DNA from: Candidatus Micrarchaeia archaeon
Lineage (GTDB): Archaea; Micrarchaeota; Micrarchaeia; Norongarragalinales; Norongarragalinaceae
DNA: 64,000 nt
Direction: 5' to 3'
NCBI GenBank assembly: GCA_041648335.1
Contig: JBAZPG010000002.1
Span: 30,528-94,527 of the forward strand
The notes beneath the pieces are model-generated. The model had not been told where the DNA came from. It did no database searches and saw only the letters and a list, made by a program, of their open reading frames with translations. Numbering within the stretch: position 1 is the first letter of the stretch; each line of letters starts with the position of its first letter. Position numbers and translations under genes: made by a program. Below are positions 6,690 through 63,683 of this stretch, in pieces.

Positions 6690-6790
6690 CTATAGAACAT
6701 ATACAAAACACCTATTATTATAGGTATTCTGTATTTTGCGGCGGGTTGCCCGGTAGCTGTTCCGCGGCCGGGTTAAAAAACGATTTCCAA
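6690..6790. promoter_or_regulatory. AT-rich divergent intergenic region with near-palindrome acctat-tatt-ataggt (6710-6725) and TATA-like tracts; candidate parDE promoter/operator
   Basis: Palindrome sits about 20-36 nt upstream of the parD start; GC drops sharply relative to flanks. Confidence 0.35.
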
Positions 6791-6887
6791 CCCGTGCCTG
6801 CCGGTGGAGATGCCTCGTTTTTGTTTCGAGTCCGCGCGTTTTGAGTGCCAGCCGAGGTTATAAGGCGGGCTTGCCAGTAATGTTTTT

Positions 6888-7962: not shown

Positions 7963-7980
7963 GTGCCGGCGGGTGTTGGT

Positions 7981-8397
7981 TCAGCGGAGTGATACGTGGT
8001 GGTGGCGGAAGCGCTGCCACACGCTCGGCTCCTTATTCGTGAGCGTCACCGTGCGGTCGTCGTGGATGCGCGCGTGCGCGTGCTTTGCGTGCAAGCCGTG
8101 TGCACGGAATGCCTCGCGCAAGGCGGCGCGTTCGCGTTCGACTATGCTGCGGCTGTAATACATTCCCGCGAGGATTACGAGCGCGAAGAACAGGGGCGCG
8201 TTCGACAGGACGAATTCCGTTAGCGGGTGGATTGCCGTGCGAAGTATTATGGGGTGTGCGGCGAGCGCGCTCAACGCCAGCGCGGTTAAGCCCAGGGCTT
8301 CGGCAGCGTAGTAACGCGCGCGTAACGCCACGAAGCGCGAGACGCGCGCGCGCAACGCCGCGGGTAACTCGGCGTGCGCGTAGTGCCGGTCCTTCAC
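7981..8397 (-). CDS. Hypothetical membrane protein, translationally coupled (ATGA overlap) to the herA stop
   Basis: 138-aa ORF with 2-3 hydrophobic helices; start overlaps herA stop by 4 nt. Confidence 0.45.
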
Positions 8398-9836: not shown

Positions 9837-9846
9837 TTGAAGCACC

Positions 9847-11627: not shown

Positions 11628-12247
11628 AATACTGTCCGGCATGCGGAAAGGCGCTCCCCCAGCCGAACCCGAAGCACTGCCCGGAATGCGGCGAGGCAAC
11701 GAGCGCGCGGTTTGCCGCAAAAGCCGTGGAGAAGAAGCCGAAGATGAGTATTGTCGGACGCCTGCGGGTACTCGGCATTGCAGCTCTCGTGTTGATTTTC
11801 CTTTTCGCGGCTGCAATGTGCGCGGCTGCGCCTTGGCAACGCGCGGCTGCGGCGGGAAACCAGTATTACGAATACCTGACAATGTTCAACAACGACTTGA
11901 ACGACCTCCAGCAACTCAACGAACAATACGACGAACTGCCGCTCGACGATTCGGCGTTCAATCGGAAGTCCGCGATTGCGGGCAGTTACGCCCTGCAGGC
12001 AAGCCAGGCGGTAACCACCTGGAGGTACTTCGATTCCTTCATAACCAAAAACCAGGCGTCGCTGGCGCGGTGGGATTTGAACGCCAGCCTGACGCAGGCG
12101 CGGATAACGGATAGTCGGGCGGTCGTACGGAACACCGCGAATAAAATGGCTTCGGAACTCGAGGAATTCGCGGGCTCGAACCCGGAGAGAATGGCTTCGA
12201 TTTCAAGGATGCTCGAAAAACTCAAGGAACTGGGGAACTTGCAATGA
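11624..12247 (+). CDS. Zinc-ribbon (CPACG..CPECG) membrane-anchored protein, paralog of the previous gene
   Basis: N-terminal C-P-x-C-G x2 zinc ribbon, one TM helix, helical extracytoplasmic domain; ATGA overlaps with both neighbours. Confidence 0.45.
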   Translation: MKYCPACGKALPQPNPKHCPECGEATSARFAAKAVEKKPKMSIVGRLRVLGIAALVLIFLFAAAMCAAAPWQRAAAAGNQYYEYLTMFNNDLNDLQQLNEQYDELPLDDSAFNRKSAIAGSYALQASQAVTTWRYFDSFITKNQASLARWDLNASLTQARITDSRAVVRNTANKMASELEEFAGSNPERMASISRMLEKLKELGNLQ

Positions 12248-28256: not shown

Positions 28257-29339
28257 ATGAAACTCGACGACGTGCTGGTAAAGGGGAAGAAGAACGTAAT
28301 CCAAGTCGCGCCCGCGGTGCGCGTCACGCTCGGCGAACTCTACGGTTTGCCTGCGGGCACGCCGGCGACCGGGAAAGTCGTGGGCTGCCTCAAGGCGTTG
28401 GGTTTTGACTTCGTATTCGACACGAGCTTCGGCGCCGACGTCGTGGTGGCCGAGGAGAGCGCGGAGCTCGCCAAGCGCCTCAAGGACGGCGGTCCGTTCC
28501 CGATATTCAACTCGTGCTGTCCCGGTTCGGTGCTCTTCCTCGAACACGCCTACCCCGAGCTCGTGCCCAGCATAGTCACGGTGAAGAGCCCCATGGAAGT
28601 CACCGGCTCGCTAATCAAGTCGTATTTCGCGGAGAAGAAGAAAATCGCGCCCTCGAAAATAAATTCCGTGGCGTTGATGCCGTGCATGATAAAGAAAACC
28701 GAAGCCAGGAAGCCGGAGTTCGACTTCGAAGGCATCCGTCCCGTGGACTGCGTAATCACCACGGTCGAACTCGCCGCCCTGCTCGAAGAGGCGGGTGTGG
28801 ACTTCAAGAAGGTTAAGGAATGCGCGTTCGACGACTTGCTTGGTGTCGCGTCGGGTGCGGGACAGATTTTCGGTTCGAGCGGGGGCGTAAGCGAGGCATC
28901 GATACGCAACTACGCTTTCCTCAAGGGGTTGCCCCTCGAGAAGCTGGACTCGAAGCCGCTCCGCGGTTCGGAGGGCTTGCGCGAGGAAACGTTCGACTTG
29001 GGCGGCGAACGCGTGAGCGTCCTGGTAATCAACTGTTTGAAGAACGCGCCGGCTGCGCTCTCGGACAAGAAGCGCCTTGCGAAATACAATTTCGTGGAAA
29101 TGATGGCGTGCCTGGGCGGCTGCGTGGGCGGCGCCGGACAGCCGCCCTCGACGCTCGAGACGCTCGAGGCGCGCCGCAAGGGGCTTTACGGAATCGACGC
29201 CGGCGCGCGCGTTAAGGTCGCCGCCCAGAACCCCCAGATTAAGGCGCTTTACGATTCCTACCTCGGGGAACCGAGGAGCGAGAAGGCGATGCGTATCCTG
29301 CACACCCAGCACGACAAGGTGTGCCAGCACTGCGCTTGA
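28257..29339 (+). CDS. [FeFe]-hydrogenase catalytic H-cluster domain protein (HydA-like, no accessory FeS domain)
   Basis: L1 FNSCCPGS..YPELVPSIVTVKSPMEVTGSLIKSY, L2 VALMPCMIKKTEARKPE, L3 VEMMACLGGCVGGAGQP; N-terminus KGKKNVIQVAPAVRVTLGE..LGFDFVFDTSFGAD matches the start of the CpI H-domain. Confidence 0.8.
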   Translation: MKLDDVLVKGKKNVIQVAPAVRVTLGELYGLPAGTPATGKVVGCLKALGFDFVFDTSFGADVVVAEESAELAKRLKDGGPFPIFNSCCPGSVLFLEHAYPELVPSIVTVKSPMEVTGSLIKSYFAEKKKIAPSKINSVALMPCMIKKTEARKPEFDFEGIRPVDCVITTVELAALLEEAGVDFKKVKECAFDDLLGVASGAGQIFGSSGGVSEASIRNYAFLKGLPLEKLDSKPLRGSEGLREETFDLGGERVSVLVINCLKNAPAALSDKKRLAKYNFVEMMACLGGCVGGAGQPPSTLETLEARRKGLYGIDAGARVKVAAQNPQIKALYDSYLGEPRSEKAMRILHTQHDKVCQHCA

Positions 29340-29351: not shown

Positions 29352-30590
29352 ATGTCGAAACGGATTTTGAGCATATCGCGCGCCCCCGGGCAGTTGGCTT
29401 CCGCTAGGGCGGCGGGTTTCAACCGCGTCGAACTTTTTACCAAGGGCATTTCATCCGAGAACATGGAAGCGAAAATAGCTGAGGCGCAACGCCTGCTGAA
29501 AGAGCACTCGCTCTCTGTGGGTTCGGTGGTTATACCCAAATCATCCACGCTCGCGGATTTCAAAGAGAACGCGCGCCTCACGATTGCTTTTGCCTCGGGT
29601 GTTGGCGCGAAAATCGTGGTCGCCGACTACCCCGCTTTCCGCGGCGGCGAGTACCGCAAGAAAGAGCGCGAGGGCGCGGACATTGTTTCCCCCGCGGCGC
29701 TTGGCAACGTGCGCGGCTTGCTCAAGAGCGTGCCGCACCCGTTCGAAGTCGCCGAAGCGTTGTCCGAGTTGAAGAAGGACGCGGCGAGCAGTAAAGTCAA
29801 GATTTTGATTGAGTCGACGGGTGGTTCTGCTTTGCTTTACAAGCCGCTCGGCTTCAAGGCGTTCGAGCGCGTGGCGCGCGCCTCGCACGGACTCGTGCTT
29901 GATTTGGAGCACGTGGCGCAGGCAATGATAGCCCAGCCCGTGGAAGAGGTTTACAACCCCGCAACGCGTTTCCTATCCAACCGCGGCTCCGAGGAGGACG
30001 CGGTTCTGGTGCGCTCTTTCTATCAGGATTACGGCAATCACATGGATGCGCGTTCGAAGCGGGCGTTCCAGGACTTCCTGGAGGCGCACGGCAAACCGGG
30101 CGAAGAGGCGCGCTTCAGGAGTGCCTGCACGCGGTTGCTGGCGTTGACGAAACCCGGGTTACGCGGCTTCGGGAAAGAAGGCGCAACGCCAAAGGACTTG
30201 CAAGTCAAGCCGTCGAAATGGGTGTACGGGTTGTTCGTCAAGGCGTGGGGCTCGCTCCCGATAAAACACGTGCACCTGACCGGCGGGCACCTCGGGGAAC
30301 GCCTCGCGCCAAGCGAAACCGTGCGCACCTCGTTCGGTACCTCGGACTTGGCATTCGAGCACGCTTACGAAATCGAAACCCCGCGCGGCGAGCCGATAAT
30401 CTTGGGTTCGAAGCCCGGGCAATCGCTTTACGAATACCTGCACGCGAAAATGGGCGGCAGGCTTTACGCGAACAAGCCCTGGCACGAGTTCGCGCGCGAC
30501 TTGCTGGACGGCCGCAAGGCAACTGTGAATTTCGAGATAGAACCGAAACTCGTGCGCCCCGCGGACTTGAAGAACGCACGAAATTTGTGA
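29352..30590 (+). CDS. Hypothetical protein, possibly a xylose-isomerase-like TIM-barrel (sugar-phosphate isomerase/epimerase) fold
   Basis: N-terminal pattern AAGFNRVELF resembles this fold; otherwise unassigned; 12 nt downstream of the hydrogenase-like gene. Confidence 0.35.
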   Translation: MSKRILSISRAPGQLASARAAGFNRVELFTKGISSENMEAKIAEAQRLLKEHSLSVGSVVIPKSSTLADFKENARLTIAFASGVGAKIVVADYPAFRGGEYRKKEREGADIVSPAALGNVRGLLKSVPHPFEVAEALSELKKDAASSKVKILIESTGGSALLYKPLGFKAFERVARASHGLVLDLEHVAQAMIAQPVEEVYNPATRFLSNRGSEEDAVLVRSFYQDYGNHMDARSKRAFQDFLEAHGKPGEEARFRSACTRLLALTKPGLRGFGKEGATPKDLQVKPSKWVYGLFVKAWGSLPIKHVHLTGGHLGERLAPSETVRTSFGTSDLAFEHAYEIETPRGEPIILGSKPGQSLYEYLHAKMGGRLYANKPWHEFARDLLDGRKATVNFEIEPKLVRPADLKNARNL

Positions 30591-30663
30591 CGCGCACTTA
30601 TTTTATCGGGTTTTGAAGAATTAATGTAGTTTTAAAAACACGCAAACAAGTTGTTTCGGCGTT

Positions 30664-30903
30664 TTAAACGGGCATTGCAACCTGTAATGTGGTTACAAAT
30701 TTAGTTCCCTGTCGGTTCATAATTTCTTTCTTTTCGTTTGGGGTTAAACATTCTATGTGTAATTCTATTGCTTCCCGTAAATTAGCGGTTGCAGTAGGTA
30801 TGTCCTTACCTTGCGAGGCTACATCTAAATCTGGACACCAGGCGGTGTAGGTTGCACCATCTTTATAGGTTACTGCTGAAAAGCCCAAAACATTCGTTTT
30901 CAT
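30664..30903 (-). CDS. hicB: HicB-like antitoxin N-terminal domain (UPF0150 fold)
   Basis: TYTAWCPDLDVASQGKDIPTATANLREAIELHIECL matches HicB; the real start is the internal ATG at 30903, and the longer track ORF (to 31125) has an implausible N-terminus. Confidence 0.55.
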   Translation of the reverse strand: MKTNVLGFSAVTYKDGATYTAWCPDLDVASQGKDIPTATANLREAIELHIECLTPNEKKEIMNRQGTKFVTTLQVAMPV

Positions 30904-30976
30904 GTAATCTCTTTCGATGCGAGGGTATATAAATAGAGTTAAACAAAAACCATAACTGTAACTTAAGTGATGTTTT

Positions 30977-31636
30977 GTGAGTTTTGTTGAAACATTGACG
31001 GATGATGTTGATCCTCTTGACAGCCTATTTGTAAAGGGCGAATCTCTGAATCGTGAATTACTTAGGGACTTATTGTTTGATTTTATAAGATTAGACGAAA
31101 GCGGACGAATTTTTCCGCTTACCAATTTTTATTCAGAAACTAATCGTAATAAAGTTTTATTATTACTTCTTGCTAGTAAAGCTCTTTCATTGAAAACGAA
31201 CATTGTTGATGATGTTTCGCCAAAAGAGCTAGAAAAAACATCAGATATTCCTGCGGGGTCCATACGTCCAACTCTACGTCAACTTGCCGAAGAACGTTTA
31301 GTTGAGGAAAATGATGGACGGTATAAGATATTATCTGGTGCGTTACCCCGCTGTTCTCAAATTCTAAAATCTGGCAACCGAACCAGACGTGCTGTTTCTT
31401 TTTCTGGAATTTCAACTGAAAAAACTCAAAAGAGCATGGCGTCCGTTTTGAAAGATTTAGTTTCGGAGGGCGAATTAGATTCGGGTCAGGCTGCGTCTGA
31501 AGTTTTTTCTTTGGTTAATCAACGTCGACCTAACACGAAATATAATGCCCTTTACAAAGTGCTTAAGGATTTAGTTCATGATCGAATATTAGCCCGAGAA
31601 ATGAAGGGAGACGTTTGGAATTATAGGCGAATTTAA
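30977..31636 (+). CDS. Hypothetical protein with a central winged-helix-like segment
   Basis: 219-aa ORF in the low-GC island; SIRPTLRQLAEERLVEENDGRYKI looks wHTH-like; stop overlaps the hicA start (TAATG). Confidence 0.4.
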   Translation: MSFVETLTDDVDPLDSLFVKGESLNRELLRDLLFDFIRLDESGRIFPLTNFYSETNRNKVLLLLLASKALSLKTNIVDDVSPKELEKTSDIPAGSIRPTLRQLAEERLVEENDGRYKILSGALPRCSQILKSGNRTRRAVSFSGISTEKTQKSMASVLKDLVSEGELDSGQAASEVFSLVNQRRPNTKYNALYKVLKDLVHDRILAREMKGDVWNYRRI

Positions 31637-31854
31637 TGAAAACGCCGGTTGTAACTGGAAAAGAGGTTTTATCCGTTCTACAAAAAAACGGTTTTGCAGT
31701 AGTTAGGTGGAAAGGATCTCACGCGCATTTAACTAAGGGTAGCTTGCAGGTTACCGTGCCGGTACACAGTAATGATGAGATTAATCCGGGTGTTTTACGG
31801 TCTATTGCACGACAAGCAGGATTTGAACCAAATTCTTTCTTCAATTTGTTTTAG
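31636..31854 (+). CDS. hicA: HicA-family mRNA interferase toxin
   Basis: VLQKNGFAVVRWKGSHAHLTKGSLQVTVPVHSNDEINPGVLRSIARQAGF is a near-consensus HicA. Confidence 0.75.
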   Translation: MKTPVVTGKEVLSVLQKNGFAVVRWKGSHAHLTKGSLQVTVPVHSNDEINPGVLRSIARQAGFEPNSFFNLF

Positions 31855-31876
31855 TAATAATATGCGGATCCGCGCG

Positions 31877-32272
31877 TTAATTTCGCTTCTCGAACTCGTC
31901 GACCGCACCGTGGAAGTATTTGCTCAACTTTTTCCTGCACGTTTCGAGGGGAACCCACTCGCATTGCGAGTGTTCGCCGCCGCACGCCAGCACCCCGCCT
32001 TCCAGCGAGCAGGCGAAGACAATCATGGTTATGGACTGCCCGTCGTCGCGCGTGAAGTGGTGGACCTGCAGGGGCGCGCCCACGCGGGTTTCGAGTCCGG
32101 TTTCCTCGCGCACCTCGCGCTTCAAGCCGTCGAACGGGTTCTCTCCTTCTTCGAGTCGTCCGCCAGGTATCTCCCACAAGCCAGGGCAGTGCTCGTCGTC
32201 CTGGTTCCGCTTAATCAGTAGCACCCGGTTCGAGTCGACTATGAACGCCTTGACGGCGATTGCGTGCTTCAT
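31877..32272 (-). CDS. NUDIX hydrolase
   Basis: Nudix box GGRLEEGENPFDGLKREVREETGL. Confidence 0.8.
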   Translation of the reverse strand: MKHAIAVKAFIVDSNRVLLIKRNQDDEHCPGLWEIPGGRLEEGENPFDGLKREVREETGLETRVGAPLQVHHFTRDDGQSITMIVFACSLEGGVLACGGEHSQCEWVPLETCRKKLSKYFHGAVDEFEKRN

Positions 32273-34193: not shown

Positions 34194-35030
34194 TTAGAGT
34201 ATGCCCGCGGTCGAGAGGAACTCGAAAACGAGGAGGGCGAGCGGCACCGCGAGCGCAGCATAAACCACGGTCTTCTTCGGGTTTCCATCCACCGACGCCG
34301 CGTAATACGACGAAAGCAGGGCGAACAACGCCAGGTAAACCCGGCTGCCCAGCGCCACGGCGTCAACGAGGCGCGCCCGCTCCACCGCGGATAGAGAGGA
34401 GAACGAGCTCAAACCGTCCGTCAGCCCGGAGTTCAATTCGGCCGTGATGTTCAACAACAACGCGAGTATCACGGGCACGAGGAACGCCGAGGCGGCGAGC
34501 ACGGTGTACTTCTGCATCGCGAGCCCGGCCGCGGTCTCGCGCTCGAGCAACTGCATTTCCAGCAGGTCCTCCGCGGTTTCCTTGAACGCGTCGCGCTGGT
34601 CCCCGCCCGTCTCGCTCGCGTTCGCGAGCATCCCCGCCGCGCGCGAGAACAACACCGAACCGTTTTCAACCGCGGTTTTCTCGAGCGCCCGCGCGATTGG
34701 CGAACCGGCGCGCACCCGCCTTGCGGCGCGGTCGAACTCCTCGCTCAACGCGCCGTAACCGCTCCCGGCTATGGACTCCATCACGTCTTCCACGCCGTGG
34801 CTGCGCGGCTGCGAGGCGGCCTGGAGCAGGGCGTCGGGGAGTGCGTCCTCGATTTCGCGGATGCGCGCCGAAGCGCGGTAGTCCCAGTAGGCATAGGCGA
34901 GCGCGGACGGAACGAAGAGAGTGGCAAGGAACGCGAGCGCGCCAGCCGCGAGCGGCAAGTCGAGGAAGGCGAGCTCGAGCAAGGCGAGCGCGGTGGAGGC
35001 GGCGGCAACGCGCGCGAGTTTTTCACGCAT
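34194..35030 (-). CDS. Type IV pilus/Tad-system inner-membrane platform protein (T2SSF-domain, TadC/FlaJ-like)
   Basis: TM helices flanking a cytoplasmic T2SSF-like helical domain (LPDALLQAAS...GSGYGALSEEFDRAARRVRAGSPIARALE). Confidence 0.6.
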   Translation of the reverse strand: MREKLARVAAASTALALLELAFLDLPLAAGALAFLATLFVPSALAYAYWDYRASARIREIEDALPDALLQAASQPRSHGVEDVMESIAGSGYGALSEEFDRAARRVRAGSPIARALEKTAVENGSVLFSRAAGMLANASETGGDQRDAFKETAEDLLEMQLLERETAAGLAMQKYTVLAASAFLVPVILALLLNITAELNSGLTDGLSSFSSLSAVERARLVDAVALGSRVYLALFALLSSYYAASVDGNPKKTVVYAALAVPLALLVFEFLSTAGIL

Positions 35031-35829
35031 TCCCTTTCACCTTCGGGCTCGACTTCTTCAGGTAATAGAGTATCGCGGCATCCGCGAGCGGGAACACGGC
35101 GAAGTAAGCAAGGAGTATCTGTTCGGGGGTGAACGCCGCCTCGAGGAACGCGGAGCCGATTACCGCGTACGCCCCGAAGAACGCCGGGACTATGCCGCCC
35201 ACGGTGACGAACACCAGCCCGAGCACGCTTTGCTTGGCCGCGTGCTTCCTCATTTTTTCGCGTTGAAGGGAAGTCAACTGGTCCGCAAGGCGGCGGAGCC
35301 CCTCGGTTTTCCCGCGCTCGAAGGCGAACGACAGGTGCGCCGCAGCGCGCCGCACGTGCACCGAGTCGATTCGTTCGCCCATCGAGGCCAGGGCGCGCGG
35401 AAACGAATGCCCGCGCTTGACGTCCGCGAGCACGCGCGAGAATTCGCGTCCCGCCTCACCGTAACCCGCCGCGCTCTCGAGGGCGCGCTCGAAAGGCGCG
35501 TTCAACGAGAGCTCGGTCGCGAGGGTGCGCAACGCAAAAGGCAAGTCGGCTTCCACGAGTTCGGCGCGCTTGCGTGCCTTTCGGGCGGGATAGGTTGATA
35601 GGCGGGCGAATGCAAGCGCGAACGAAGCTGCTGCCGCTGCAGCTGACAAAGCGATGCCCGCGTTCAGCGCCAACGCCGTTGCGAGCGCCGCGAGCGCGCA
35701 GGCAACCGAGGCAACGAGTGAGAAGCCGAGCCATTCGCCCGCACCAGTTTTCATCCCCGCCTTGCGTAGCGCCTCCGCGGTAGTGCGGTTGGCGCGCCCG
35801 TCGAAGAGTTTGCCCGCGTCGAATTCCAT
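35023..35829 (-). CDS. Type IV pilus/Tad-system inner-membrane platform protein (T2SSF-domain, TadB/FlaJ-like)
   Basis: LPFALRTLATELSLNAPFERALESAAGYGEAGREFSRVLADVKRGHSFPRALASMGE T2SSF pattern; overlaps the next gene by 8 nt. Confidence 0.6.
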   Translation of the reverse strand: MEFDAGKLFDGRANRTTAEALRKAGMKTGAGEWLGFSLVASVACALAALATALALNAGIALSAAAAAASFALAFARLSTYPARKARKRAELVEADLPFALRTLATELSLNAPFERALESAAGYGEAGREFSRVLADVKRGHSFPRALASMGERIDSVHVRRAAAHLSFAFERGKTEGLRRLADQLTSLQREKMRKHAAKQSVLGLVFVTVGGIVPAFFGAYAVIGSAFLEAAFTPEQILLAYFAVFPLADAAILYYLKKSSPKVKGNA

Positions 35830-35859: not shown

Positions 35860-37290
35860 TCACCCGTACAAGTAGTCGTTCACCGCTTGCGTGAACCCGG
35901 CGTTATCCTTCCAATTGTTTTTCGAGAGGAGGACGGCGCGTTTGGCGTGCTCGGCTTGAAAGCCGCGGCGGTCGAAACCATAATTCTTCGAGAGTTCAGC
36001 GAACACCGCGTTGCTGGAGTAGTTCGCGGTGCGTTCGAGCGAATCCGTTTCCGGAACGTAAGCATACAGGGGCCGCGCCTTCCCGCATTTGACTTCAGAT
36101 ATTTCGGTGACGCGGCGTTTCTCGCTTTGGGTGCGCGTCGCCTTGTCATAGGATAGGAAGCGGCGTTGGACGAGCACGAGGTCGATTGCGTTCACTTCGT
36201 CCTCGCGTCCGCCGAGGGTCTTGAGGCGGGCGAGTGCCTCGTCCCCGGTGGAAGCGTGCATTGTCGCGTAAGAGCCGCGCGCCTGCCCCGAGAGCAGGGA
36301 GTCGAACAACGCGGCGGCCTCGGGCGCGTCGCGTATTTCCCCGATGATTACGCGGTCGGGGCGCATGCGCAGCGAATCCTTCACCAAATCCTTGAGCCCG
36401 ATGCCCAACTCCTCGTTCGCCACCAGGCACACCTTGTGCTTGTGCGGCACGTTTATCTCGGGGGTCTCCTCGGTGATTACCACGCGGTCGTTGAGCGGGA
36501 CGAACGAGAAGAGCGCGTTTAACGTCGTGGTTTTCCCGGAGCCGGTGGAGCCGGCGACCACGAGGCTCGTCTCGCCGTAGAGTGCGAGCCAGAGGAAGGC
36601 AGCGGCATCCGCGGAAAGCGTGCGGTTCTCCACGAGTTCGGGAACCGTGAACGGCTTCTCCCGAAACTTGCGGATGGTTAGTTCCACGCCGTTCAAGGCG
36701 AGCGGCTTTATGGTGGCGTGGAGGCGCGAACCGTTCGGGAGCACCGCATTCAAGCGCGGGCTCTGGAGGGTGAGCCGCCTGCCCAGCGAGCGCGCCATCC
36801 TGTTCGCGGCGTTCACGCAATAATCCCTGCTTGTAATCGTGCAATTCGTCTCGAGCCAGCCGCGCGAGCGGTGGAACACGCGCACGGGTTCGTTCACGCC
36901 CGTCACCGCGATTTCCTCGAGTTCGTCGTCCGCCAGCATTTCCCCGAACGGGCCGTAACCCGCGCTTTCCGTTGCGGCGCGGAGCACGCGTTCCGCGGAT
37001 TCTTTCCCGAGCAGTAGGCTGTGGCGGGCGCACATCTTCTTGAGGAGGGCGCGCAACGCGCCTTCGTCCGGCTCTTGCTCTTCCTCGAAAGCGTCCAGCA
37101 GCGCAACGAGCAGGCGCTCTTCCTCGGGGTTCAAGTCGAGTTCGGGGAGCGCGTACTCTGCCTTGCCCGCGATTTTCCAACCCAGCGAGTCGGCTTTCAC
37201 CATGAGAGTTCGTCGCCCGCTTTCACGCCGTTGGACGAGGGCGCTTCGATTAAGTAACGCGCGTTCGGGCAGGAAACCCAAATGCGCCAC
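35860..37290 (-). CDS. Secretion/pilus assembly ATPase of the VirB11/CpaF/TadA (FlaI-like) family
   Basis: Walker A AGSTGSGKTTTLNAL, Asp box, Walker B VIIGEIRD, His box GSYATMHAS. Confidence 0.8.
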   Translation of the reverse strand: MAHLGFLPERALLNRSALVQRRESGRRTLMVKADSLGWKIAGKAEYALPELDLNPEEERLLVALLDAFEEEQEPDEGALRALLKKMCARHSLLLGKESAERVLRAATESAGYGPFGEMLADDELEEIAVTGVNEPVRVFHRSRGWLETNCTITSRDYCVNAANRMARSLGRRLTLQSPRLNAVLPNGSRLHATIKPLALNGVELTIRKFREKPFTVPELVENRTLSADAAAFLWLALYGETSLVVAGSTGSGKTTTLNALFSFVPLNDRVVITEETPEINVPHKHKVCLVANEELGIGLKDLVKDSLRMRPDRVIIGEIRDAPEAAALFDSLLSGQARGSYATMHASTGDEALARLKTLGGREDEVNAIDLVLVQRRFLSYDKATRTQSEKRRVTEISEVKCGKARPLYAYVPETDSLERTANYSSNAVFAELSKNYGFDRRGFQAEHAKRAVLLSKNNWKDNAGFTQAVNDYLYG

Positions 37291-37556
37291 GGCGCGACGC
37301 GGTCCACGCGGAGCACGCGCTTTCGGTTGTCAAGCCATACGGCGGTGAATGGGGGACAGAAGAAAGAGTGGATTGCGTTCGGGCGTGCCCCGAAGTCGAA
37401 CAGGAGCGGCTTGAATTGCGGGGAAGAAAGCATTATACCCTTGAATTTTAGCCAATGCGAACCAGCGGTTCGGCAGTCGAACGCGGGACGCTTGCGCTTG
37501 TAGACCTTCACGGAACGCATTACTGCGGGAGGTATTAAAAGCCGTTCGCGGCGTAA

Positions 37557-50752: not shown

Positions 50753-50829
50753 GGGCCCGTAGCTCAGCTTGGATTCAGAGCGATTGCCTCCTAAGCAATA
50801 GGTCATGGGTTCAAATCCCATCGGGCCCG
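50753..50829 (+). tRNA. tRNA-Arg (anticodon CCT)
   Basis: GGGCCCG acceptor / CGGGCCC, D-arm GCTC..GAGC, anticodon stem ATTGC/GCAAT with loop CTCCTAA, T-arm ATGGG-TTCAAAT-CCCAT, discriminator G. Confidence 0.8.
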
Positions 50830-50836
50830 CTCAATC

Positions 50837-51259
50837 ATGAAAAAGGCGCAGGTTAGCGTGGAGTTCTTCCTATTGCTTACTCTCATGCTCGCGCTCGCGG
50901 TGCTCTTGTACGCTGGCACGGGCGCCGAACAGGGCCGCGCCCGTTCGCTCGACCGCGCCGCCGAGACGCGCGCCTTCCTCGAGCGCGCCTCGCTCGCGTT
51001 GCGCGAGTCGTGGTTCGAGGGGAACGCCTCGACGCGCGTGTTCTCCGCGTTCGTGCCCGGGGAAACGAACTGCTTCTACTGGAACGCGACTTCTTCGGCG
51101 TTGTATTGCGCGTCGATTGCTGACGGAGCTTTCGTTGCAGCCGCAGCGCCCGGCTTGCCCGAGCCCCAGACGAATTGCACGCTCCCGCTTGCCGCGGGCT
51201 GGCGCGAGTTCAAGGCGTGGCGGGACAACGCCGCGTCGCGCCTGGACTGCCTCGGCTGA
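50837..51259 (+). CDS. Class III signal-peptide (type IV pilin-like) secreted protein
   Basis: MKKAQVSVEF followed by a hydrophobic helix; starts 8 nt after tRNA-Arg; heads the pilus gene cluster. Confidence 0.5.
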   Translation: MKKAQVSVEFFLLLTLMLALAVLLYAGTGAEQGRARSLDRAAETRAFLERASLALRESWFEGNASTRVFSAFVPGETNCFYWNATSSALYCASIADGAFVAAAAPGLPEPQTNCTLPLAAGWREFKAWRDNAASRLDCLG

Positions 51260-51271
51260 CTGGGTTTTTTA

Positions 51272-52597
51272 ATGCCCGACGGATTACTAAGATGCTATAT
51301 GAACAAGCGCATTTTCGCGTTGCTGTTTTTGTGCCAGTTCGCGGCTGCCGGCGGCTCGCCCTTGATTTGCACTAATTACGATGTCACTACCGAGCTTACC
51401 TTGTCGGGCGCGGTTAGTGCTTGCTACCTGTACGTCCACCCGGGCGCTAGCCTGACTATACGCGATGCGGCAGTCAATGTTTTCGAGGACGGCAACATCA
51501 CGGTTGATGCGGGCGGCTCGTTCGCGGCGCGCAACTCCAGCTTCGCCGGCGGAACGCAGACGTTCGCGTTGTTTTCGCCGGGCTCCGCGGTGCTCTTGGA
51601 GTCCGTGGACGCGCACGGTTTCGGGGTGCCCGCCGCGGGCAAGACCGGCTGGACGATTGCCACTGGAACCGCGCAATTGGATAACTTCAGCGTCCACCAC
51701 GGCTTGGACGGGCTCGTGCTCGAACACGCTTCCGGCGCCTCGGTGCGGGGCGGCTCGTTTTACTCGAACTCGCAGTCCGGCTTGCTCGTCTCGATTTCCG
51801 ACGGCGTTTCGTTTTCCCAGGTGAACTCGTCGTACAACCCGTCGCGGTTGGAGTATTCGCGGGTGCGTTGGCTGGACGGCTTCTTCGAGGAAATGGTTTT
51901 CGCGGACGAGGTCTCGCGCCTCGAGCGCGCGTGGAGCGTGCGCTTCGAGTTCAGCGAGGGCGGCGAGCCGGCTGAGGCTATGCTGTCCGTGAGCGATTAT
52001 TTTGGCGATGTTGTTTATTCGTCCTCCGCACCGGAAGAGTACGCGGAGTTCGAGGCGGTTCAGGCGGTTTACGGGCAGGGCTTTTCGGGCGTCCCGTTGA
52101 ACCTCGGGGACGAGTGGACCGAAGGCGCGCGCACCCCCCATTCTTATTCCGCAGTTTCGCCCGGAGGCGTGGTGGTGAGCGGCAAGTTCGAGGCGGGTGC
52201 TGGCGAAGTCGGCGTGTCATTCGCCCAGGAAACCGCGCCGTCTGCTTACCCCGGCTCGCTGTTCACGATACAGGCGCCCTCGAACATCATCGTGAACCCC
52301 CAGGTGACTATTTACGTTGACCTCGTGTTGAACGGCAAGGGTGCCTGCGGGGCCGCGTTGTCCGTGGGCGCCGCATTAATTGCTTTGGAATCCTGCGATT
52401 CCACGACCGGCAGACACGCGTTCCTGCTCTCGCTCACCGAACCCGGAACCTATGAGTTGATTGCGTCTTACGCGGGGCAGACTGCCAAAGCAACGCTGAA
52501 CGTGGTGGGGCAGCCGCCCCTCGCGTTGCCCGACCACTCGGTTTGGAGTGTTTTGTTTTTGTTAGCCGTCGCGCTGTTCGCTTTGAGGAAGAATTGA
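51272..52597 (+). CDS. Secreted surface protein (Ser/Gly/Ala-rich, possible beta-helix) with C-terminal TM anchor
   Basis: Signal peptide IFALLFLCQFAAAG; C-terminal WSVLFLLAVALFAL helix. Confidence 0.45.
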   Translation: MPDGLLRCYMNKRIFALLFLCQFAAAGGSPLICTNYDVTTELTLSGAVSACYLYVHPGASLTIRDAAVNVFEDGNITVDAGGSFAARNSSFAGGTQTFALFSPGSAVLLESVDAHGFGVPAAGKTGWTIATGTAQLDNFSVHHGLDGLVLEHASGASVRGGSFYSNSQSGLLVSISDGVSFSQVNSSYNPSRLEYSRVRWLDGFFEEMVFADEVSRLERAWSVRFEFSEGGEPAEAMLSVSDYFGDVVYSSSAPEEYAEFEAVQAVYGQGFSGVPLNLGDEWTEGARTPHSYSAVSPGGVVVSGKFEAGAGEVGVSFAQETAPSAYPGSLFTIQAPSNIIVNPQVTIYVDLVLNGKGACGAALSVGAALIALESCDSTTGRHAFLLSLTEPGTYELIASYAGQTAKATLNVVGQPPLALPDHSVWSVLFLLAVALFALRKN

Positions 52598-52598
52598 A

Positions 52599-53696
52599 AT
52601 GTCCCGTAATTTGGCTTTACTCAAGAAAGCCGTGACCGCCCACGACGAGCGCGCCGAACTCGAAGTCATCGTGCGCCGACTCAAGGGCGGCGCGGATGAG
52701 CGCGTCAAGCACGAGCCCAGCTCCCGCGTGGCTGCGATAGCCCGCAACTTCCGCGGCGACTCCGAAATCCACGCCGAGTCCCCGGACTTGGAGAAGGCGG
52801 ACGTGCGCGCCATCAAGACCGGACCGCTCTCGCTTCCCGCCGCGTTTTACCGTGCGTTTGCCTCGCCGTTGAACGCGTTCGCCCGCGTCCTTGCCGGCAC
52901 GCCGTGGTTCCAGGACGCGCGCGTCAACTTGGATTGCGCGGGCGTGGTGCTTTCCGTCGAGGCTTACCTGGCGTTGTCGGCGTCGGCTGCCGTGCTTTTG
53001 GGACTCACTGTTTTTGCGTTGTTCGCAGTCCTCGGCTTCGCGCTCGGCGACTTGACGCTCGTGGCGTTCGCGCCCGTCCTCGGTTTGCTCGGGCTGGGGA
53101 GCGCGGTGGCGTTCGCTGCGGTTTACCCTTCCAGCAAGGCGGAGGGCAGGGCGCGCGAAGTCGACCGCGTGCTCCCGTTCGCGTTGCGCCAGCTCGCCAC
53201 CCAAATCAAGGCGGGCGTTAGTTTTTACAGCGCGCTCCGTTCGGTCGCCCAGACGGATTACGGCGTGCTCAGCGACGAGTTCAAGCGCGTGCTCAGCGAT
53301 ATGGCTAACGGGGTGAGCACGGACGAGGCGCTCGCGCGCCTCCTCAAGCGCACGCGTTCGAAGGGGCTGCGCACCGCGCTCACGCAAGTCATCCGCGCGC
53401 TCAAGACGGGCGGCAGTCTGTCCCAGATAATCACGGATATAGCGGACGACGTGTCGTTCGAGTCCCGCATGCGCATCCGCGATTTCACCGAGCGCCTGAA
53501 TTTCATCAACATAATCTACATCATGGTTGCGGTAGTCGCCCCCGTCGGGGCGGCGATCCTGTCGGCGGTGATGCAGATACCAATGTTCTCGGGCGGGCTG
53601 CCGCCGTTCTTCGTTTACTTCGCGTTCGCGGGCGTGACCGTGGCGATGCTGTTGATACTCTACATAACAAAACGCTTGGAGCCGGTGGCATGGTGA
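52599..53696 (+). CDS. Tad/type IV pilus platform protein (T2SSF domain), TadB-like
   Basis: LPFALRQLATQIKAGVSFYSALRSVAQTDYGVLSDEFKRVLSDMANGVSTDEAL. Confidence 0.6.
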   Translation: MSRNLALLKKAVTAHDERAELEVIVRRLKGGADERVKHEPSSRVAAIARNFRGDSEIHAESPDLEKADVRAIKTGPLSLPAAFYRAFASPLNAFARVLAGTPWFQDARVNLDCAGVVLSVEAYLALSASAAVLLGLTVFALFAVLGFALGDLTLVAFAPVLGLLGLGSAVAFAAVYPSSKAEGRAREVDRVLPFALRQLATQIKAGVSFYSALRSVAQTDYGVLSDEFKRVLSDMANGVSTDEALARLLKRTRSKGLRTALTQVIRALKTGGSLSQIITDIADDVSFESRMRIRDFTERLNFINIIYIMVAVVAPVGAAILSAVMQIPMFSGGLPPFFVYFAFAGVTVAMLLILYITKRLEPVAW

Positions 53697-54607
53697 GCTT
53701 TTTAGAATCGCTTTCCACGCGTTACCGCCTCTTGCGCAGGTATTACGCCGCGAGCGGCTTCAAGTATTCCTTCGAATTGTTCGCGCTCGGCTTCGTGCTC
53801 ATTGCATTAACCGTGGCGCTCGCGTTGAACGCGCTCAAGGTGGGCCCCGCGGTTTCTGTGGTTGCCTTCGCTGCGGTCTCGAGCCTCATAATCGCGCTCC
53901 CAATCAGCTCGCGTAACGCGCGCATCGCGGAAATCGAGAAGAACCTGCCGGACGCGTTGAAGCACATGTCGCTCGTGCTCAAGGCTGGCGGCACGGTCGA
54001 GGGTGCGTTACAGGAAGCCGCGGGCGGGGATTACGGTCCGTTGAGCGCCGAATTCGCGCGCGCACTCAGGCAGCTCAAGGAAGGCAAGAGCTTCGAGGAA
54101 GTACTTGTCGGGGCGGCGCGGGACAGCGGTTCGCTCCTGTTCGTGCGCACCGCAACCATAATCGTGGACGCCAAGCGCGCGGGCGCGGGGATGGCGGGCG
54201 TAATCGCGGAGATAGCCGAGGACGCGCGCGATGTTCTCCGCATCAAGCGCGAACGCTACTCGCGCACCACGATGCACGTGCTCTTCCTGGGCGTATCCGC
54301 GATACTGTTGTCGCCGTTCATCTTCGGGTTCACGATAACCATAGTGAATTACATCAGCGTCGGGATTACGAGCGCGATGCCCGGCTCGAAGAGCGGGGTG
54401 GCGTTGTGCGACTTGAACCTCCTGCTCACGGTGTTCATCGCAGTCGAATCCGTCATCTCGGCGTTCGCGATAGGCATAATCCGCGAGGGAAAGATAGCAA
54501 AGTATATATTATACGCGCCGTTCATGATCTTGTTCGCCCTCATCGTCTTCGAACTCGGGAAGTACGCGAGCTCGCTGATCGTCGGGGGCGCGCCGATGGT
54601 GTGTTGA
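53690..54607 (+). CDS. Tad/type IV pilus platform protein (T2SSF domain), TadC-like
   Basis: LPDALKHMSLVLKAGGTVEGALQEAAGGDYGPLSAEFARALRQLKEGKSFEEVL; overlaps neighbours by a few nt. Confidence 0.6.
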   Translation: MVSFLESLSTRYRLLRRYYAASGFKYSFELFALGFVLIALTVALALNALKVGPAVSVVAFAAVSSLIIALPISSRNARIAEIEKNLPDALKHMSLVLKAGGTVEGALQEAAGGDYGPLSAEFARALRQLKEGKSFEEVLVGAARDSGSLLFVRTATIIVDAKRAGAGMAGVIAEIAEDARDVLRIKRERYSRTTMHVLFLGVSAILLSPFIFGFTITIVNYISVGITSAMPGSKSGVALCDLNLLLTVFIAVESVISAFAIGIIREGKIAKYILYAPFMILFALIVFELGKYASSLIVGGAPMVC

Positions 54608-54708
54608 ATGAAGGGGCAATCTAGCGTTGAATACGCTCTGCTGGTTGGCGGTGCGGTCGTTTTCGTGACCGTCATAGCCTATGTCATCAAATCGAACATT
54701 ATTTCGTG
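54607..54708 (+). CDS. Flp-type/class III pilin (33 aa; not in ORF track because shorter than 60 aa)
   Basis: MKGQSSVEYALLVGGAVVFVTVIAYVI: G-x4-EY Flp motif followed by a single hydrophobic helix. Confidence 0.5.
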
Positions 54709-54722
54709 AGGCGGCTGCAGCA

Positions 54723-54914
54723 ATGAAAGCGCAGTCGTCCATGGAATTTTTGATGATGGTAGTCGGCATCATACTGTTCGTCTCGCTCGTTTTCCTCCTT
54801 GTCAACGGCACCCTTTTGCCGCAGGCTGAGGGGCAGATAATCGACCAGAGCGAAATCCTCGCCTCCCTCAAGGCGGGTTTGTTTGCCACGCCGTCGCCTT
54901 CCCCGACTCCGTGA
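54723..54914 (+). CDS. Second Flp-type/class III pilin, with Ser/Pro/Thr tail
   Basis: MKAQSSMEFLMMVVGIILFVSLVFLLV from the internal ATG at 54723. Confidence 0.5.
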   Translation: MKAQSSMEFLMMVVGIILFVSLVFLLVNGTLLPQAEGQIIDQSEILASLKAGLFATPSPSPTP

Positions 54915-54956
54915 ACGCCTGCGTTTTTATTCCCCGCGCGCTTTAGCGTTTTAATC

Positions 54957-56183
54957 ATGACGCGTGCAATCATTTTGTTCGCCCTTTTGTCCGCCTGCCT
55001 GGCGTACGCGGAGGTGTCGAGCACCGAGGCGGCGCAAGCCGCTTCCACCTACGCTTCGCTCGATTCACTCAAGTCGCTCTCGCGTCCCCTCGAGGCGGGT
55101 TCGGACGCGTACTGGGTGTATTATACTCCGTTGACCTCGTCGAACAAGCTCGTGCTCGCCGTGGGGCAGTTCTATGGTTCCGTGCTCGAGGACGAGGAGG
55201 AACTCGCGCGGGTTGCGGGTGCGGTTTACGATTACGAAACGGCTTACACCACGATTACGGGGGAGGGTTATTCTTTCGACGCGCTCGCCCCCGCGTTTGG
55301 CGCGATTGCGACTGCGTTGCAACGGAACGAGGCGAACCTCTACGACCTCGAAGCGGTGACGCAGTCGAAGTACCCGTTCCTCGACTACTCGGGAATACAG
55401 GAGAACATCTCGCTCTTGCTGGTGGCGTCCGACGACTTGAACGTCGCGTTCCAGGAGGGCGCGACCCAACAGCGTATTTTCGAGGAGGAATACTCGGGTT
55501 CCTCGCTCGCAGTCCTAATCAACTATTATGACTCGGGTTTCGAGGGGCTCGCGGGCTTCCTCGCGGTTTACGAGGACTACCTCGACGCCGTAGCCACGAT
55601 GCAGTCCCAGGTGTACAAGTCGAGCATTCCCTCGAATGACCGCACGAGCATTTACGACAGCCTCGAGAACCTCAAGGAAATCGGCGTTTCCGACATATAC
55701 TCGCAGTTCATCGCCTCGAACCCCCAGGCGCTCCTGGCGACGAAGCGCGCGCTCCGCGATTCGTGGGTCAACGACTCCGTCTCCTCGTTCTCTTACTTGA
55801 AGACGCGCACGAACGCCCTAGCGGCGTACGCCCAACAGAAGCCGCGCTTCGATTACGTTTCCTCTGGTAAAGCGGCGCTCGAAAACTGCGGTTTGGGGGA
55901 CGAAGCCGCCAAGTCGGACGGCTATTACGCGGAACTCGAATACTACAAGAACAAGGGCACCGCCGCATCGTACGCCGAGATGATTACCATACTCGACGAG
56001 GCGGTTCCACTGTTGAACGGGATTTACGCGGATTACTCGAACTGCGTCGCGGCGCCCACCGCCCCGGCGTCGCCCGCTAAGGCGCAGGACAACTCGTGGG
56101 CGCTCTACGCCGCCCTCGCCTTGCTCGCCGCTGCTGGCGCGTACACGTGGTGGAAGAAGAAGCAGGAAGAACAGAACGAGTAG
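54957..56183 (+). CDS. Secreted surface protein with signal peptide and C-terminal TM anchor plus KKKQEEQNE tail
   Basis: IILFALLSACLAYA signal; WALYAALALLAAAGAYTWW anchor. Confidence 0.45.
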   Translation: MTRAIILFALLSACLAYAEVSSTEAAQAASTYASLDSLKSLSRPLEAGSDAYWVYYTPLTSSNKLVLAVGQFYGSVLEDEEELARVAGAVYDYETAYTTITGEGYSFDALAPAFGAIATALQRNEANLYDLEAVTQSKYPFLDYSGIQENISLLLVASDDLNVAFQEGATQQRIFEEEYSGSSLAVLINYYDSGFEGLAGFLAVYEDYLDAVATMQSQVYKSSIPSNDRTSIYDSLENLKEIGVSDIYSQFIASNPQALLATKRALRDSWVNDSVSSFSYLKTRTNALAAYAQQKPRFDYVSSGKAALENCGLGDEAAKSDGYYAELEYYKNKGTAASYAEMITILDEAVPLLNGIYADYSNCVAAPTAPASPAKAQDNSWALYAALALLAAAGAYTWWKKKQEEQNE

Positions 56184-61355: not shown

Positions 61356-63683
61356 TCAACCGAGCCAGGAGCCGCCCGCATCAACGCACGCCTGCTTGTA
61401 AAACTCGAGAACCCTTTCCGGATAGCGCGCGCCCAAGCCTTCGCCCGTGTCTGGTACTCCATAGTGCGTCCCCGGGCGTCCACAGCAAGCGTTCTGGTCG
61501 TAATTCGAACAGTCGCTTCCACCCGAATAGTATGCCCTACACGCTTCGAGCATTGCGTCCTCGAACAACATGCCACCGTTAATTTTTTGTATTGCCAATT
61601 CCGCGGTGCCCATGCCGCGATTGTAACCAAAAAGCACCATTTGGAACTGCTCCGTCTTGCTTGTGCCAGGCAAATCCGCTTGGACATTATCTAAATCCGT
61701 TGCCAACTTTTCCGTACCGCGGTCTATGTTCTCTTCAACCTCGCAGCCGCCCTCGTTGCCGCAAGTGACTACCTGCATCAAACCCTGGTTGTTATCTTGT
61801 TCGTGGACGCACGAACTCTCAGTCATGATTAAAGCTTCCACCAAACCCAAGTCGAACCCCCGCGAATACAACCCGTTCCGGTACATCGCCGCCTCCAACT
61901 CGGTTTCGTATTTCGTGCAACCTGCGAACGCAGCCGGCGTTTCCGTGACGCTCTGCGAGCACCCGAAAGACGCGCGGTAGGCGCCCGAGTTTATGCGCGA
62001 GTAACCGTAATACTCTGCGATGCCGTCGAATATCGCCTTCGCTGCGGTTCCAGCGAAATCCGCTTGTTCGTAAGCCGGGTCGTCAATTCGCGTCACTTCC
62101 ACTAGAATCGAGGGCGCGCCCGAGTAGAGTACGCCTAACTTGTTGAGATATGACTCGGAGTCTGGAAACAAGCCCCGGTTATCCTCGACCAACGGTGCCA
62201 AGCGGGCGTTAACCGTGGCGGCAACGCGCTTGGATTCGCCGAGCACGCCCGCAGTTGCCTGAATCGGGTAGTAAACCATTCCTATACCTTCGTCACAGGA
62301 GTCGTGGTGAATGCTAACCATCAAATCCGCGTCCCAATCGCGCGCCTTGTTCGCGCGGTCCGTTACTGTCAAGTCTTTTTCGCAGTTTGCGTCAAACAAA
62401 TAAACCTCTGCGCCAGCCGATTTGAGCCAATCTGCAAGTTTTTCACCCACCGCCTTGTTGCGGGAGTATTCCTCGATTCCATTCGTACAAGCCGCGCCGA
62501 AGTCACAGGCTTGCGCATCTGGAAGAACTGCGTGATGTCCTATGTCAACGAATATTTTCTTTCCCGTGAGTGAGTCCGTTATCAATCCCGCACTTGGAAT
62601 TTCCTCGGGCTGTTCGGCTTCCTCTAATTCGGCTTCGAGTTCCTCGCTTTTTTCCAAGTCCGCTACGCGCGAGTGCTCGATCGTGACTTTCACAATTATT
62701 TCCTTTTCCAGTACGAGCGTCTTCAAGCCAATCGTGAGCTTGCCGTCGTAAGCGTCTTCCTTGAACAAGCCATCCGAATCCGTGGGCGCGTCCTCCAAGT
62801 CCACGCGCACGACTCCGTAATACGTTTCGCCGAGCTTCTCGAATTCCACGCTCGCGTACTCTGCGACTCCGCCCGTGAAACGCGTCAACGGCTCCTCATC
62901 CAGCGCGTAAGTAAACGAAAGTTCGCTGTTCGCGGAAGGCTCCAATTCGGATACCTTCAACTCGATTTCGTCAGGCAAGTCGTCAAGCGGGTTTGCAAAC
63001 GGCGTTGGTGTGGGTATTGACTTCACTAGCTCGAGCGCCTCAATCTCGTTTGCCACATCATAGTCCGGGTTGATTATCTTCGCAGTGCGCACCGCGCCCA
63101 CGAACTCGCGCGCGTCCTCCACGATTTCAGCCGACAGTTCTTCCTCGGGCGCGAGCGCCTCGTTCAGCTTCCCCTGTAGCGCAGCAGCCTCGTCCTCGCT
63201 CAAGTCCAGCGAAGCGATATCGCGGAGCAACCCATCGAACGCTACGGCTTGAGCCGCTGCGGCGCCCGGCTTGGTTACCAAATAAATGGGTGCGCTTCCC
63301 TCATCCGCGTATTCTATTGTCTTCTCCTGCGTTTGGTTGGGTGCCAGCGTCACGGACTCCCGCGTTGCAGTCTCGGTGACTTGTTCTTCCAACGGAATCG
63401 GCGGAGTATCCGTTTCTTCTTCCACCGCGCTCGACTCCGGGTTCACGGTGTACAGGTTGAATGAAACGGTTTCGTCGGACGGGTTGTTTATGCTGATGCC
63501 CGCCTTTGTCCCGGCGGCACCGTAGCTCAAGACGAGCGCGGGCTCCGCCAAATACTCGGTTTCCCCTAGAGCGGTCTCCACGCCCACTTGCTCGGCAGTC
63601 GGAGGCACGGGTTGCGAGAAGTAGAGCGCGGCTATGACTAGTAATAGGATGCCCGCGGCGATTGCGATTGTTTTGTCGTCCAT
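61356..63683 (-). CDS. Large exported peptidoglycan hydrolase: N-acetylmuramoyl-L-alanine amidase (Amidase_3) plus lysozyme-like lytic transglycosylase (SLT) domains
   Basis: N-terminal signal/anchor; Amidase_3 pattern IGHHAV..E..N..LVSIHHDS; SLT motif LIMTESSCVHEQDNNQGLMQV ... FGYNRG; Glu/Pro-rich linkers. Confidence 0.7.
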   Translation of the reverse strand: MDDKTIAIAAGILLLVIAALYFSQPVPPTAEQVGVETALGETEYLAEPALVLSYGAAGTKAGISINNPSDETVSFNLYTVNPESSAVEEETDTPPIPLEEQVTETATRESVTLAPNQTQEKTIEYADEGSAPIYLVTKPGAAAAQAVAFDGLLRDIASLDLSEDEAAALQGKLNEALAPEEELSAEIVEDAREFVGAVRTAKIINPDYDVANEIEALELVKSIPTPTPFANPLDDLPDEIELKVSELEPSANSELSFTYALDEEPLTRFTGGVAEYASVEFEKLGETYYGVVRVDLEDAPTDSDGLFKEDAYDGKLTIGLKTLVLEKEIIVKVTIEHSRVADLEKSEELEAELEEAEQPEEIPSAGLITDSLTGKKIFVDIGHHAVLPDAQACDFGAACTNGIEEYSRNKAVGEKLADWLKSAGAEVYLFDANCEKDLTVTDRANKARDWDADLMVSIHHDSCDEGIGMVYYPIQATAGVLGESKRVAATVNARLAPLVEDNRGLFPDSESYLNKLGVLYSGAPSILVEVTRIDDPAYEQADFAGTAAKAIFDGIAEYYGYSRINSGAYRASFGCSQSVTETPAAFAGCTKYETELEAAMYRNGLYSRGFDLGLVEALIMTESSCVHEQDNNQGLMQVVTCGNEGGCEVEENIDRGTEKLATDLDNVQADLPGTSKTEQFQMVLFGYNRGMGTAELAIQKINGGMLFEDAMLEACRAYYSGGSDCSNYDQNACCGRPGTHYGVPDTGEGLGARYPERVLEFYKQACVDAGGSWLG

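Follow-up and report, generated by a model that had tools for sequence, protein, structure and literature searches.

Archaeal Epd-like pili and bacterial Tad pili both have two single-domain platform genes and short pilins; in this clade the two tandem single-T2SSF genes arose from the fission of a two-domain platform, and an origin of the bacterial Tad systems from archaeal Epd-like ones has been inferred (PMC6668835, Denise et al.). In the archaeal clade 1 systems TadC is encoded twice and the major pilins are about 70 amino acids (aa) long (PMC4858521, Makarova et al. 2016), and a "System 1" with a split platform is known from methanogens, Thermococcales, and DPANN (bioRxiv 10.64898/2026.04.22.720090, Sivabalasarma & Albers). 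The present study analyzes a locus at positions 50753–56183 of a 64,000-nucleotide (nt) window, by which we mean the whole stretch of DNA analyzed (contig JBAZPG010000002.1 of GCA_041648335.1, positions 30,528–94,527, forward strand). The locus comprises a tRNA-Arg gene and seven open reading frames (ORFs), all intact and all on the + strand: a pilin-like protein with a class III signal (g1), an anchored surface protein (g2), two platform proteins (g3 and g4), two very small prepilins (g5 and g6), and a second anchored surface protein (g7), in the order and at the coordinates given by an initial annotation made from the sequence. Architecture and similarity indicate that this is quite probably an archaeal Epd-like or System 1 type IV pilus locus with a split platform. 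The initial annotation had called it a Tad/Flp-like pilus, which was right as to the Tad/Epd lineage, given the split platform and the helix-only short pilins, but not as to the bacterial Flp/TadV type.

The locus shares with the Epd pilus of Methanococcus maripaludis, and with clade 1 and System 1, an archaeal host, two single-T2SSF platform genes, class III signals with Gln at position +1 (QxSxExxxL), short pilins that have no globular domain, and larger minor pilins, while relatives of the window locus share with them also a dedicated A24 peptidase inside the locus. It differs in having neither ATPase nor peptidase, in the presence after the second platform gene of a mini-pilin with 30–32 mature residues, whereas the reported major pilins have about 70 aa as precursors, and in g2 and g7, which have no described counterparts. 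With bacterial Tad/Flp systems (type IVc; Caulobacter CpaF/CpaG/CpaH/PilA) there is in common a TadB/TadC-like pair of single-domain platform proteins, helix-only pilins with Glu5-Tyr6, an ATPase in the relatives that is nearest to CpaF among solved structures, and, presumably, a function in adhesion. In contrast to those systems, however, the window has no secretin (RcpA), TadD, TadZ, or TadE/F/G, the mature pilin N-terminus is Gln, the platform genes run N-half then C-half, and the peptidase of the relatives has an archaeal Arc_PepC C-terminal domain. Genes of the TadZ type usually stand alone in archaea, so that the absence of any TadZ/FleN/MinD-type ATPase (arCOG00589/05608) among the window ORFs scanned with Pfam tells little. 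In the locus Pfam gave no match to Flp_Fap (PF04964) and only a weak one to DUF4244 (E 0.0028). An NCBI protein identical to g3 is assigned to a "Candidatus Micrarchaeia archaeon" metagenome-assembled genome (MAG), and Pfam found archaeal markers in the window (PAC2, mevalonate kinase, and archaeal-type Ogg); by these signs the host is a DPANN archaeon (Candidatus Micrarchaeia), which rules out a bacterial Tad system in the strict sense, a candidate also rejected for its missing Flp_Fap, secretin, and Tad accessory genes in the window.

Both platform proteins named in the initial annotation were upheld by Pfam, g3 (52599–53696) having a single T2SSF domain at 82 bits (E 4.7e-23) and g4 (53690–54607), which overlaps it by 7 nt, a single one at 56.5 bits (E 3.5e-15), against a PF00482 cut-off of 25.2 bits. 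In the NCBIfam comparison g3 aligned to residues 8–248 and g4 to residues 280–549 of the 555 of ArlJ/FlaJ, and by these alignments the two proteins are the N and C halves of a split PilC/FlaJ-type platform. By the usage of Denise et al. 2019, g3 is TadC-like. The 89 g3 homologues listed came nearly all from Micrarchaeota, Norongarragalinales, Diapherotrites, or Iainarchaeum, the next-best matches after the archaeal ones being bacterial TadB fusions at E of about 1e-11, and a profile of g3 homologues had no match among PDB sequences. All 35 columns that were invariant in an alignment of 18 homologues, the window protein included, are kept in g3 of the window. An archaellum has a homologous T2SSF platform, an ATPase of the FlaI superfamily, and class III signal substrates, and the initial annotation had named an archaellar FlaJ as the finding that would tell against it; the window platform is split, however, its two proteins scored only 33–62 bits against ArlJ/FlaJ models with cut-offs of 400–550, the ATPases scored 185–321 bits against an ArlI cut-off of 550, and the locus and window hold no archaellins and no ArlH/F/G (FlaH/F/G) genes. 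The archaellum was therefore rejected.

How the locus departs from its relatives could be seen from a scan of one genome per species, which found g3 relatives at 340 places, those listed all lying in MAGs of Micrarchaeota, Norongarragalinales, Iainarchaeum, or unclassified archaea. Eighty loci were fetched, and their layout was read from phmmer searches with the window proteins against all ORFs together with a motif listing. The typical order begins with a CpaF-like ATPase, g3, g4, a mini-pilin, and a pilin of 50–80 aa, and continues downstream with two or three pilins of 100–160 aa, a pilin of 51 aa when mature, a prepilin peptidase, a g1-like pilin, and a TctA-like membrane protein. The ATPase ended no more than 400 nt from g3 in 65 loci and was split by a frameshift in one more (L023), giving 66 of the 72 loci that had enough upstream sequence. 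These cognate ATPases carry the NCBI name "CpaF family", and against solved structures they scored 266 bits with CpaF, 257 with A. fulgidus GspE, and 219 with FlaI. Clustering of polytopic ORFs in the 80 loci yielded 31 A24 peptidase ORFs, of which some are fragments; that of L029 matched Peptidase_A24 at 43.8 bits and Arc_PepC at 28.1 bits. The window (L001) belongs to a subclade with L002, L003, L005, L006, and L083/84, at 51–71% g3 identity, in which the layout is SpoIIM-(tRNA-Arg)-g1-(g2)-g3-g4-g5-g6-g7-NIF3, with no ATPase and no peptidase. Judged by gene order, this subclade layout is a reduced and rearranged version of the usual locus.

The claim of a pilus locus accordingly stands for the platform and the pilins, but the locus is incomplete, lacking both the ATPase that is so regularly adjacent elsewhere and the peptidase. 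Within 64 kb the only ATPase of type IV pilus type is at 35860–37290, in a separate set of genes that we call module B, and tblastn with two CpaF-like ATPases against the window recovered only this gene, at 33–37% identity. No prepilin peptidase was found in the window, either by tblastn with the peptidase of a relative (E > 5) or as an A24 match in Pfam searches of multi-transmembrane ORFs, and tblastn likewise found no TctA-like protein there. A candidate motor does occur elsewhere. In GCA_002792915.1 (L082) the cognate ATPase is on a different contig and followed by unrelated genes, in a dcd/map context that recurs around MFA4946860.1, a stand-alone CpaF-family ATPase located between dcd and the methionine aminopeptidase gene (map) on a 210-kb contig (8001–9506 of L085, ENA ERZ27249422 k141_523322) and 77% identical to the GCA_002792915.1 protein. 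The accession falls in the same series as the window proteins MFA4946175–198, and the tetranucleotide composition of its contig correlates with that of the window at 0.980, compared with 0.978 between the two halves of the window and at most 0.96 for other relatives. Because both the accession series and the composition match, the motor gene appears to lie in trans within the same genome, and MFA4946860.1 very probably comes from the same MAG and is the putative cognate motor.

For the pilin genes, all six frames of the entire window were searched for [GAS]-Q-x-[STAGV]-x-E-[aromatic/aliphatic] ahead of a hydrophobic stretch. g1, g5, and g6 had the only class III cleavage motifs with a hydrophobic helix in the 64 kb, and being the sole matches in the window their clustering is not due to chance. 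Cleavage before Gln would give mature lengths of 136, 30, and 60 residues, respectively. The formal check for class III signals proposed in the initial annotation thus found the motif in all three, and in the Pfam Class_IIIsignal family (PF04021) g5 scored 23.4 bits and g1 19.9 bits (E 7e-4), slightly under the cut-off of 23.7, with the L013 orthologue of g5 over it at 31.8 bits.

The most unusual of these genes is g5 (54608–54709), which encodes a 33-aa prepilin, MKG/QSSVEYALLVGG... (MKG/QSSVEY, the slash marking cleavage), with the 30-aa mature product QSSVEYALLVGGAVVFVTVIAYVIKSNIIS. It was absent from the ORF track of the initial annotation and was left uncalled by the gene caller of the Logan contig, but it is a genuine gene, as that annotation had proposed: its ATG abuts the TGA of g4, coupling its start to the g4 stop, NCBI has it as MFA4946197.1 ("class III signal peptide-containing protein"), and it differs from the L002 gene at 21 synonymous codons and 1 nonsynonymous codon, a dominance of synonymous changes that argues for a real gene under purifying selection. 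The first class III ORF after g4 had a mature length of 30–32 residues in half of the related loci (38/76) and of exactly 30 in 26; the loci with such a mini-pilin were all of Micrarchaeota type, the Iainarchaeum equivalent having mostly 40–57 residues. Q1, E5, Y6, and K25 were invariant across 33 distinct mini-pilin sequences, and mean pairwise identity in the same loci was 0.54 for the mini-pilin, 0.51 for g4, and 0.47 for g3. Between E5 and K25 the mature g5 forms a hydrophobic core of 18 residues, with only five more residues beyond K25. It may co-polymerize with the 60-residue g6 in the core of a fibre, or it may stay at the platform as a primer. A literature search, which was not exhaustive, found no description of a 30-residue pilin. 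It is conceivable, although we put this forward only tentatively, that the 30–32-residue mini-pilin is an undescribed minimal type IV pilin, either the smallest fibre subunit in a g5/g6 filament or an obligatory platform-bound primer, and that together with the unlinked motor it defines a DPANN-specific Epd/Tad-like branch for host attachment. A conserved pilin of 30 residues with little beyond its N-terminal helix would probe the lower size limit of type IV pilins.

The second small prepilin, g6 (54723–54914), has 63 aa, MKA/QSSMEFLMMVVG... (MKA/QSSMEF), with one helix and a tail of about 35 aa ending PSPSPTP, and it had no Pfam match. Pilins of 50–80 aa occupy its place as second pilin in most related loci, and g6 is likely the major filament subunit, being the best candidate for that role. 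The first gene, g1 (50837–51259), encodes 140 aa with four Cys and a class III signal by motif scan (MKKA/QVSVEFFLLL), and it is predicted to be a minor pilin; pilins resembling it, of 140–220 aa, are found downstream in many related loci. Next to it g2 (51299–52597; 432 aa, or 441 from an ATG at 51272) has a Sec-type signal peptide, a right-handed beta-helix region, an immunoglobulin (Ig)-like C-terminal domain, and a C-terminal transmembrane anchor followed by RKN. The beta-helix signals are weak (Pfam Beta_helix, E 0.0037; PDB sequences of mannuronan C5-epimerases, E 0.018), and both the presence and the length of g2 differ among close relatives. We regard g2 as a candidate adhesin. L083 has one 278-aa protein in which g1 (44% identity, residues 2–134) is fused to the Ig-like domain and transmembrane anchor of g2 (31%). 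This is indirect support for joint action of g1 and g2, such as that of a minor pilin with an adhesin which it displays, and their partnership seems plausible from this fusion. The second anchored protein, g7 (54957–56183; 408 aa), has a signal peptide and a C-terminal transmembrane helix followed by KKK; in an AlphaFold model (36 sequences, predicted local distance difference test score 93) it has a long helical bundle besides a small beta domain. Its family is small, 1.84 billion proteins having yielded 45 representatives, each about 400–440 aa long, and no Pfam match was obtained for any of 36 members; in six related loci g7 was always downstream of the pilins.

From these parts a working scheme may be proposed. 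The products of g1, g5, and g6 would enter the membrane as prepilins and be cut before the conserved Gln by an EppA/PibD-type class III signal peptidase whose gene would lie beyond the window. g3 and g4 would together form the membrane platform, driven by a hexameric CpaF/TadA-type ATPase whose gene, relocated in this subclade, is very probably MFA4946860.1. The platform would pull pilins out of the membrane and stack them into a thin helix-only fibre with g6 as its likely main subunit, and g5, translationally coupled to g4, would be either a core subunit that co-polymerizes or a primer bound to the platform. The minor pilin g1 would carry or dock the beta-helix protein g2 as an adhesin, g7 would serve as a membrane-anchored helical stalk protein in an accessory role, and the likely output would be that the cell attaches to a surface or to another cell as its host. 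The adhesion or attachment role suggested in the initial annotation is plausible.

Several points weigh against an Epd-like pilus that is complete and filamentous. The pilus is predicted here from genes, and because ATPase and peptidase are absent in cis its function hinges on genes elsewhere, of which MFA4946860.1 is placed in this genome by accession order and composition and not by a shared contig. CpaF came out barely ahead of GspE among the solved structures, and the locus may belong to some other two-platform archaeal system. The mature g5 is nearly all hydrophobic and may be no fibre subunit at all. One alternative is a short pseudopilus or bindosome-like assembly that would display or position g2 and g7, with g5 remaining membrane-bound within the platform complex. 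This would fit a mini-pilin that has only about five residues past its helix and is on average slightly more conserved than either platform protein, the two anchored surface proteins inside the operon, the loss from the window locus of the multi-pilin set of its relatives, and the proposal that proteins with class III signals functionalize type IV filament machines (bioRxiv 10.64898/2026.04.22.720090). We nevertheless consider it unlikely: g6 with its 60 mature residues resembles Epd/Flp major pilins in both size and shape, close homologues that have a full set of pilins resemble true pili, and g2 and g7 have no class III signals but ordinary signal peptides and C-terminal anchors and so are not pilin-like substrates. 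Another possibility is that the locus works with module B as one machine, in which the module B ATPase powers g3/g4 and its platform is redundant or regulatory. Module B, all on the – strand, has two T2SSF proteins (34194–35030 and 35023–35829), a T2SSE ATPase (35860–37290; Pfam, 126.6 bits), and a weakly DUF192-like ORF (37197–37520; 17.3 bits), so that the ATPase and platform pair named in the initial annotation do exist. Having the only ATPase of its type in the 64 kb, and no pilins nearby, it would complement a pilin locus in which no ATPase is present. Yet it has its own platform pair, likewise in N-then-C order, which shares only 30–32% identity with g3 and g4. Its ATPase stands further from every solved homologue than the CpaF-like ones do (best 2OAP at 162 bits, CpaF at 154), and it is only 33–37% identical to the cognate ATPases compared with 61–77% for the stand-alone orthologue, apparently of the same MAG. 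As a module of three or four genes it is also found free of pilins in other DPANN, Micrarchaeota among them, with gene order kept in L086 (638–3872), L087 (6004–9058; archaeon GW2011_AR10), and L089, the DUF192-like ORF beside it in L086 and L088 (29–298), and, in L086 and L087, PAC2 on its downstream side; L087, where the flanks are full, had no class III ORF within 6 kb of it, L086 and L089 being short contigs. The closed AR10 genome has, besides the module, a complete CpaF-type pilus locus (L075). On this comparison module B is an old paralogous set of ATPase and platform with no pilins in cis. Given its own platform, its conservation free of pilins, and its coexistence with a complete locus in AR10, it is probably not the missing motor, although cross-talk is possible, and a single combined machine is quite unlikely.

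Two further explanations concern the history of the locus, and both are less probable than those above. One is that it is a decaying, non-functional remnant left after loss of ATPase and peptidase, which would account for their absence along with that of the TctA-like protein and most pilins of related loci. Against such decay, none of the seven ORFs is disrupted, six or more loci share the reduced layout at the g3 identities given above, g5 is under strong purifying selection, every one of the invariant g3 columns is retained, and the cognate ATPase has been kept elsewhere, which makes a remnant very improbable. The other sees in the locus a genomic island that entered at the tRNA-Arg gene, a common insertion point according to the initial annotation. 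The tRNA-Arg(CCT) gene (50753–50830, ARAGORN and sequence) does abut g1, at a distance of 6–7 nt (50831–50836) and not the 8 nt previously reported. In L083, moreover, an exact 18-nt direct repeat of the tRNA-Arg(CCT) 3′ end (8988–9005 and 9099–9116) lies 111 nt downstream, likely a scar of past integration or excision at the tRNA, and by that scar the tRNA-Arg would have served as an attachment site in the lineage. The L083 pilus genes are outside the repeat pair, however, and in the window the tRNA 3′ end does not recur downstream of the locus and no integrase is present. The GC content of the locus (0.59–0.62) is that of the window (0.594), and the tRNA and the flanks (SpoIIM...NIF3-POR-AMP phosphorylase-FtsZ) are conserved in relatives. 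The island claim therefore had to be given up, insertion at the tRNA being the least credible of the explanations considered. We return to an Epd-like pilus with a split platform as the reading preferred.

DPANN archaea presumably live attached to hosts, by means that are largely obscure. A pilus family as widespread in Micrarchaeota and Iainarchaeota as its 340 places suggest is a reasonable candidate for an attachment organelle, and the window subclade offers a natural case in which platform and pilin genes have been parted from motor and peptidase. The general picture of type IV filaments is unchanged, since the literature already covers this class of system and its occurrence in DPANN, and both the platform genes and the mini-pilin already carry labels at NCBI; pili are not mentioned in the Micrarchaeota genome papers PMC12892359 and PMC8975820.

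The short spacing at the start of the locus leaves no room for a separate archaeal g1 promoter after the tRNA. It is possible that g1 is co-transcribed with the tRNA and the transcript processed, or that a promoter lies within the tRNA. A tRNA-Arg is also upstream of g1 in L002, with a T-rich spacer of about 32 nt, and in L083, at about 195 nt. The scan of the window for the tRNA-Arg 3′ end gave two matches, the tRNA itself included, where 0.02 would be expected by chance; the other, at 12062–12080 (–), agrees at 16 of 19 positions and is 39 kb away in a coding region on the opposite strand, in an orientation unfit for an att pair, and is probably due to chance or a tRNA-derived remnant.

The genes flanking the locus are housekeeping genes (a leucyl/isoleucyl-type tRNA synthetase, SpoIIM-like, NIF3, POR gamma, AMP phosphorylase, and FtsZ). 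Further downstream, at 61356–63683 (–), is a 775-aa protein with an N-terminal transmembrane helix and an Amidase_3 (N-acetylmuramoyl-L-alanine amidase) domain at 73 bits, a murein hydrolase in an archaeon. The initial annotation had made it part of the attachment apparatus, but five housekeeping genes separate it from the pilus locus and no functional link between the two was found, so that this part of the proposal finds no support. Elsewhere in the window a DNA-repair cluster (2887–10833, –) has HerA (DUF87, 85.8 bits) and a weak match to NurA in Pfam, with Rad50-like and Mre11-like ORFs (2887–4884 and 4885–6090) beside them that were assigned from reading the sequence. Two patches of low GC, at 6000–8000 (0.51) and 30000–32000 (0.46) against 0.59, may be acquired DNA; by sequence reading the latter holds HicA/HicB-type toxin-antitoxin-like ORFs (31636–31854, +; 30664–31125, –) and a winged-helix protein. 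A 360-aa product encoded at 28257–29339 (+) has an [FeFe]-hydrogenase large-subunit C-terminal domain (262 bits) and small-subunit domains (56.6 bits), and whether it is a true hydrogenase or a Nar1-like protein, it is unexpected for a Micrarchaeon.

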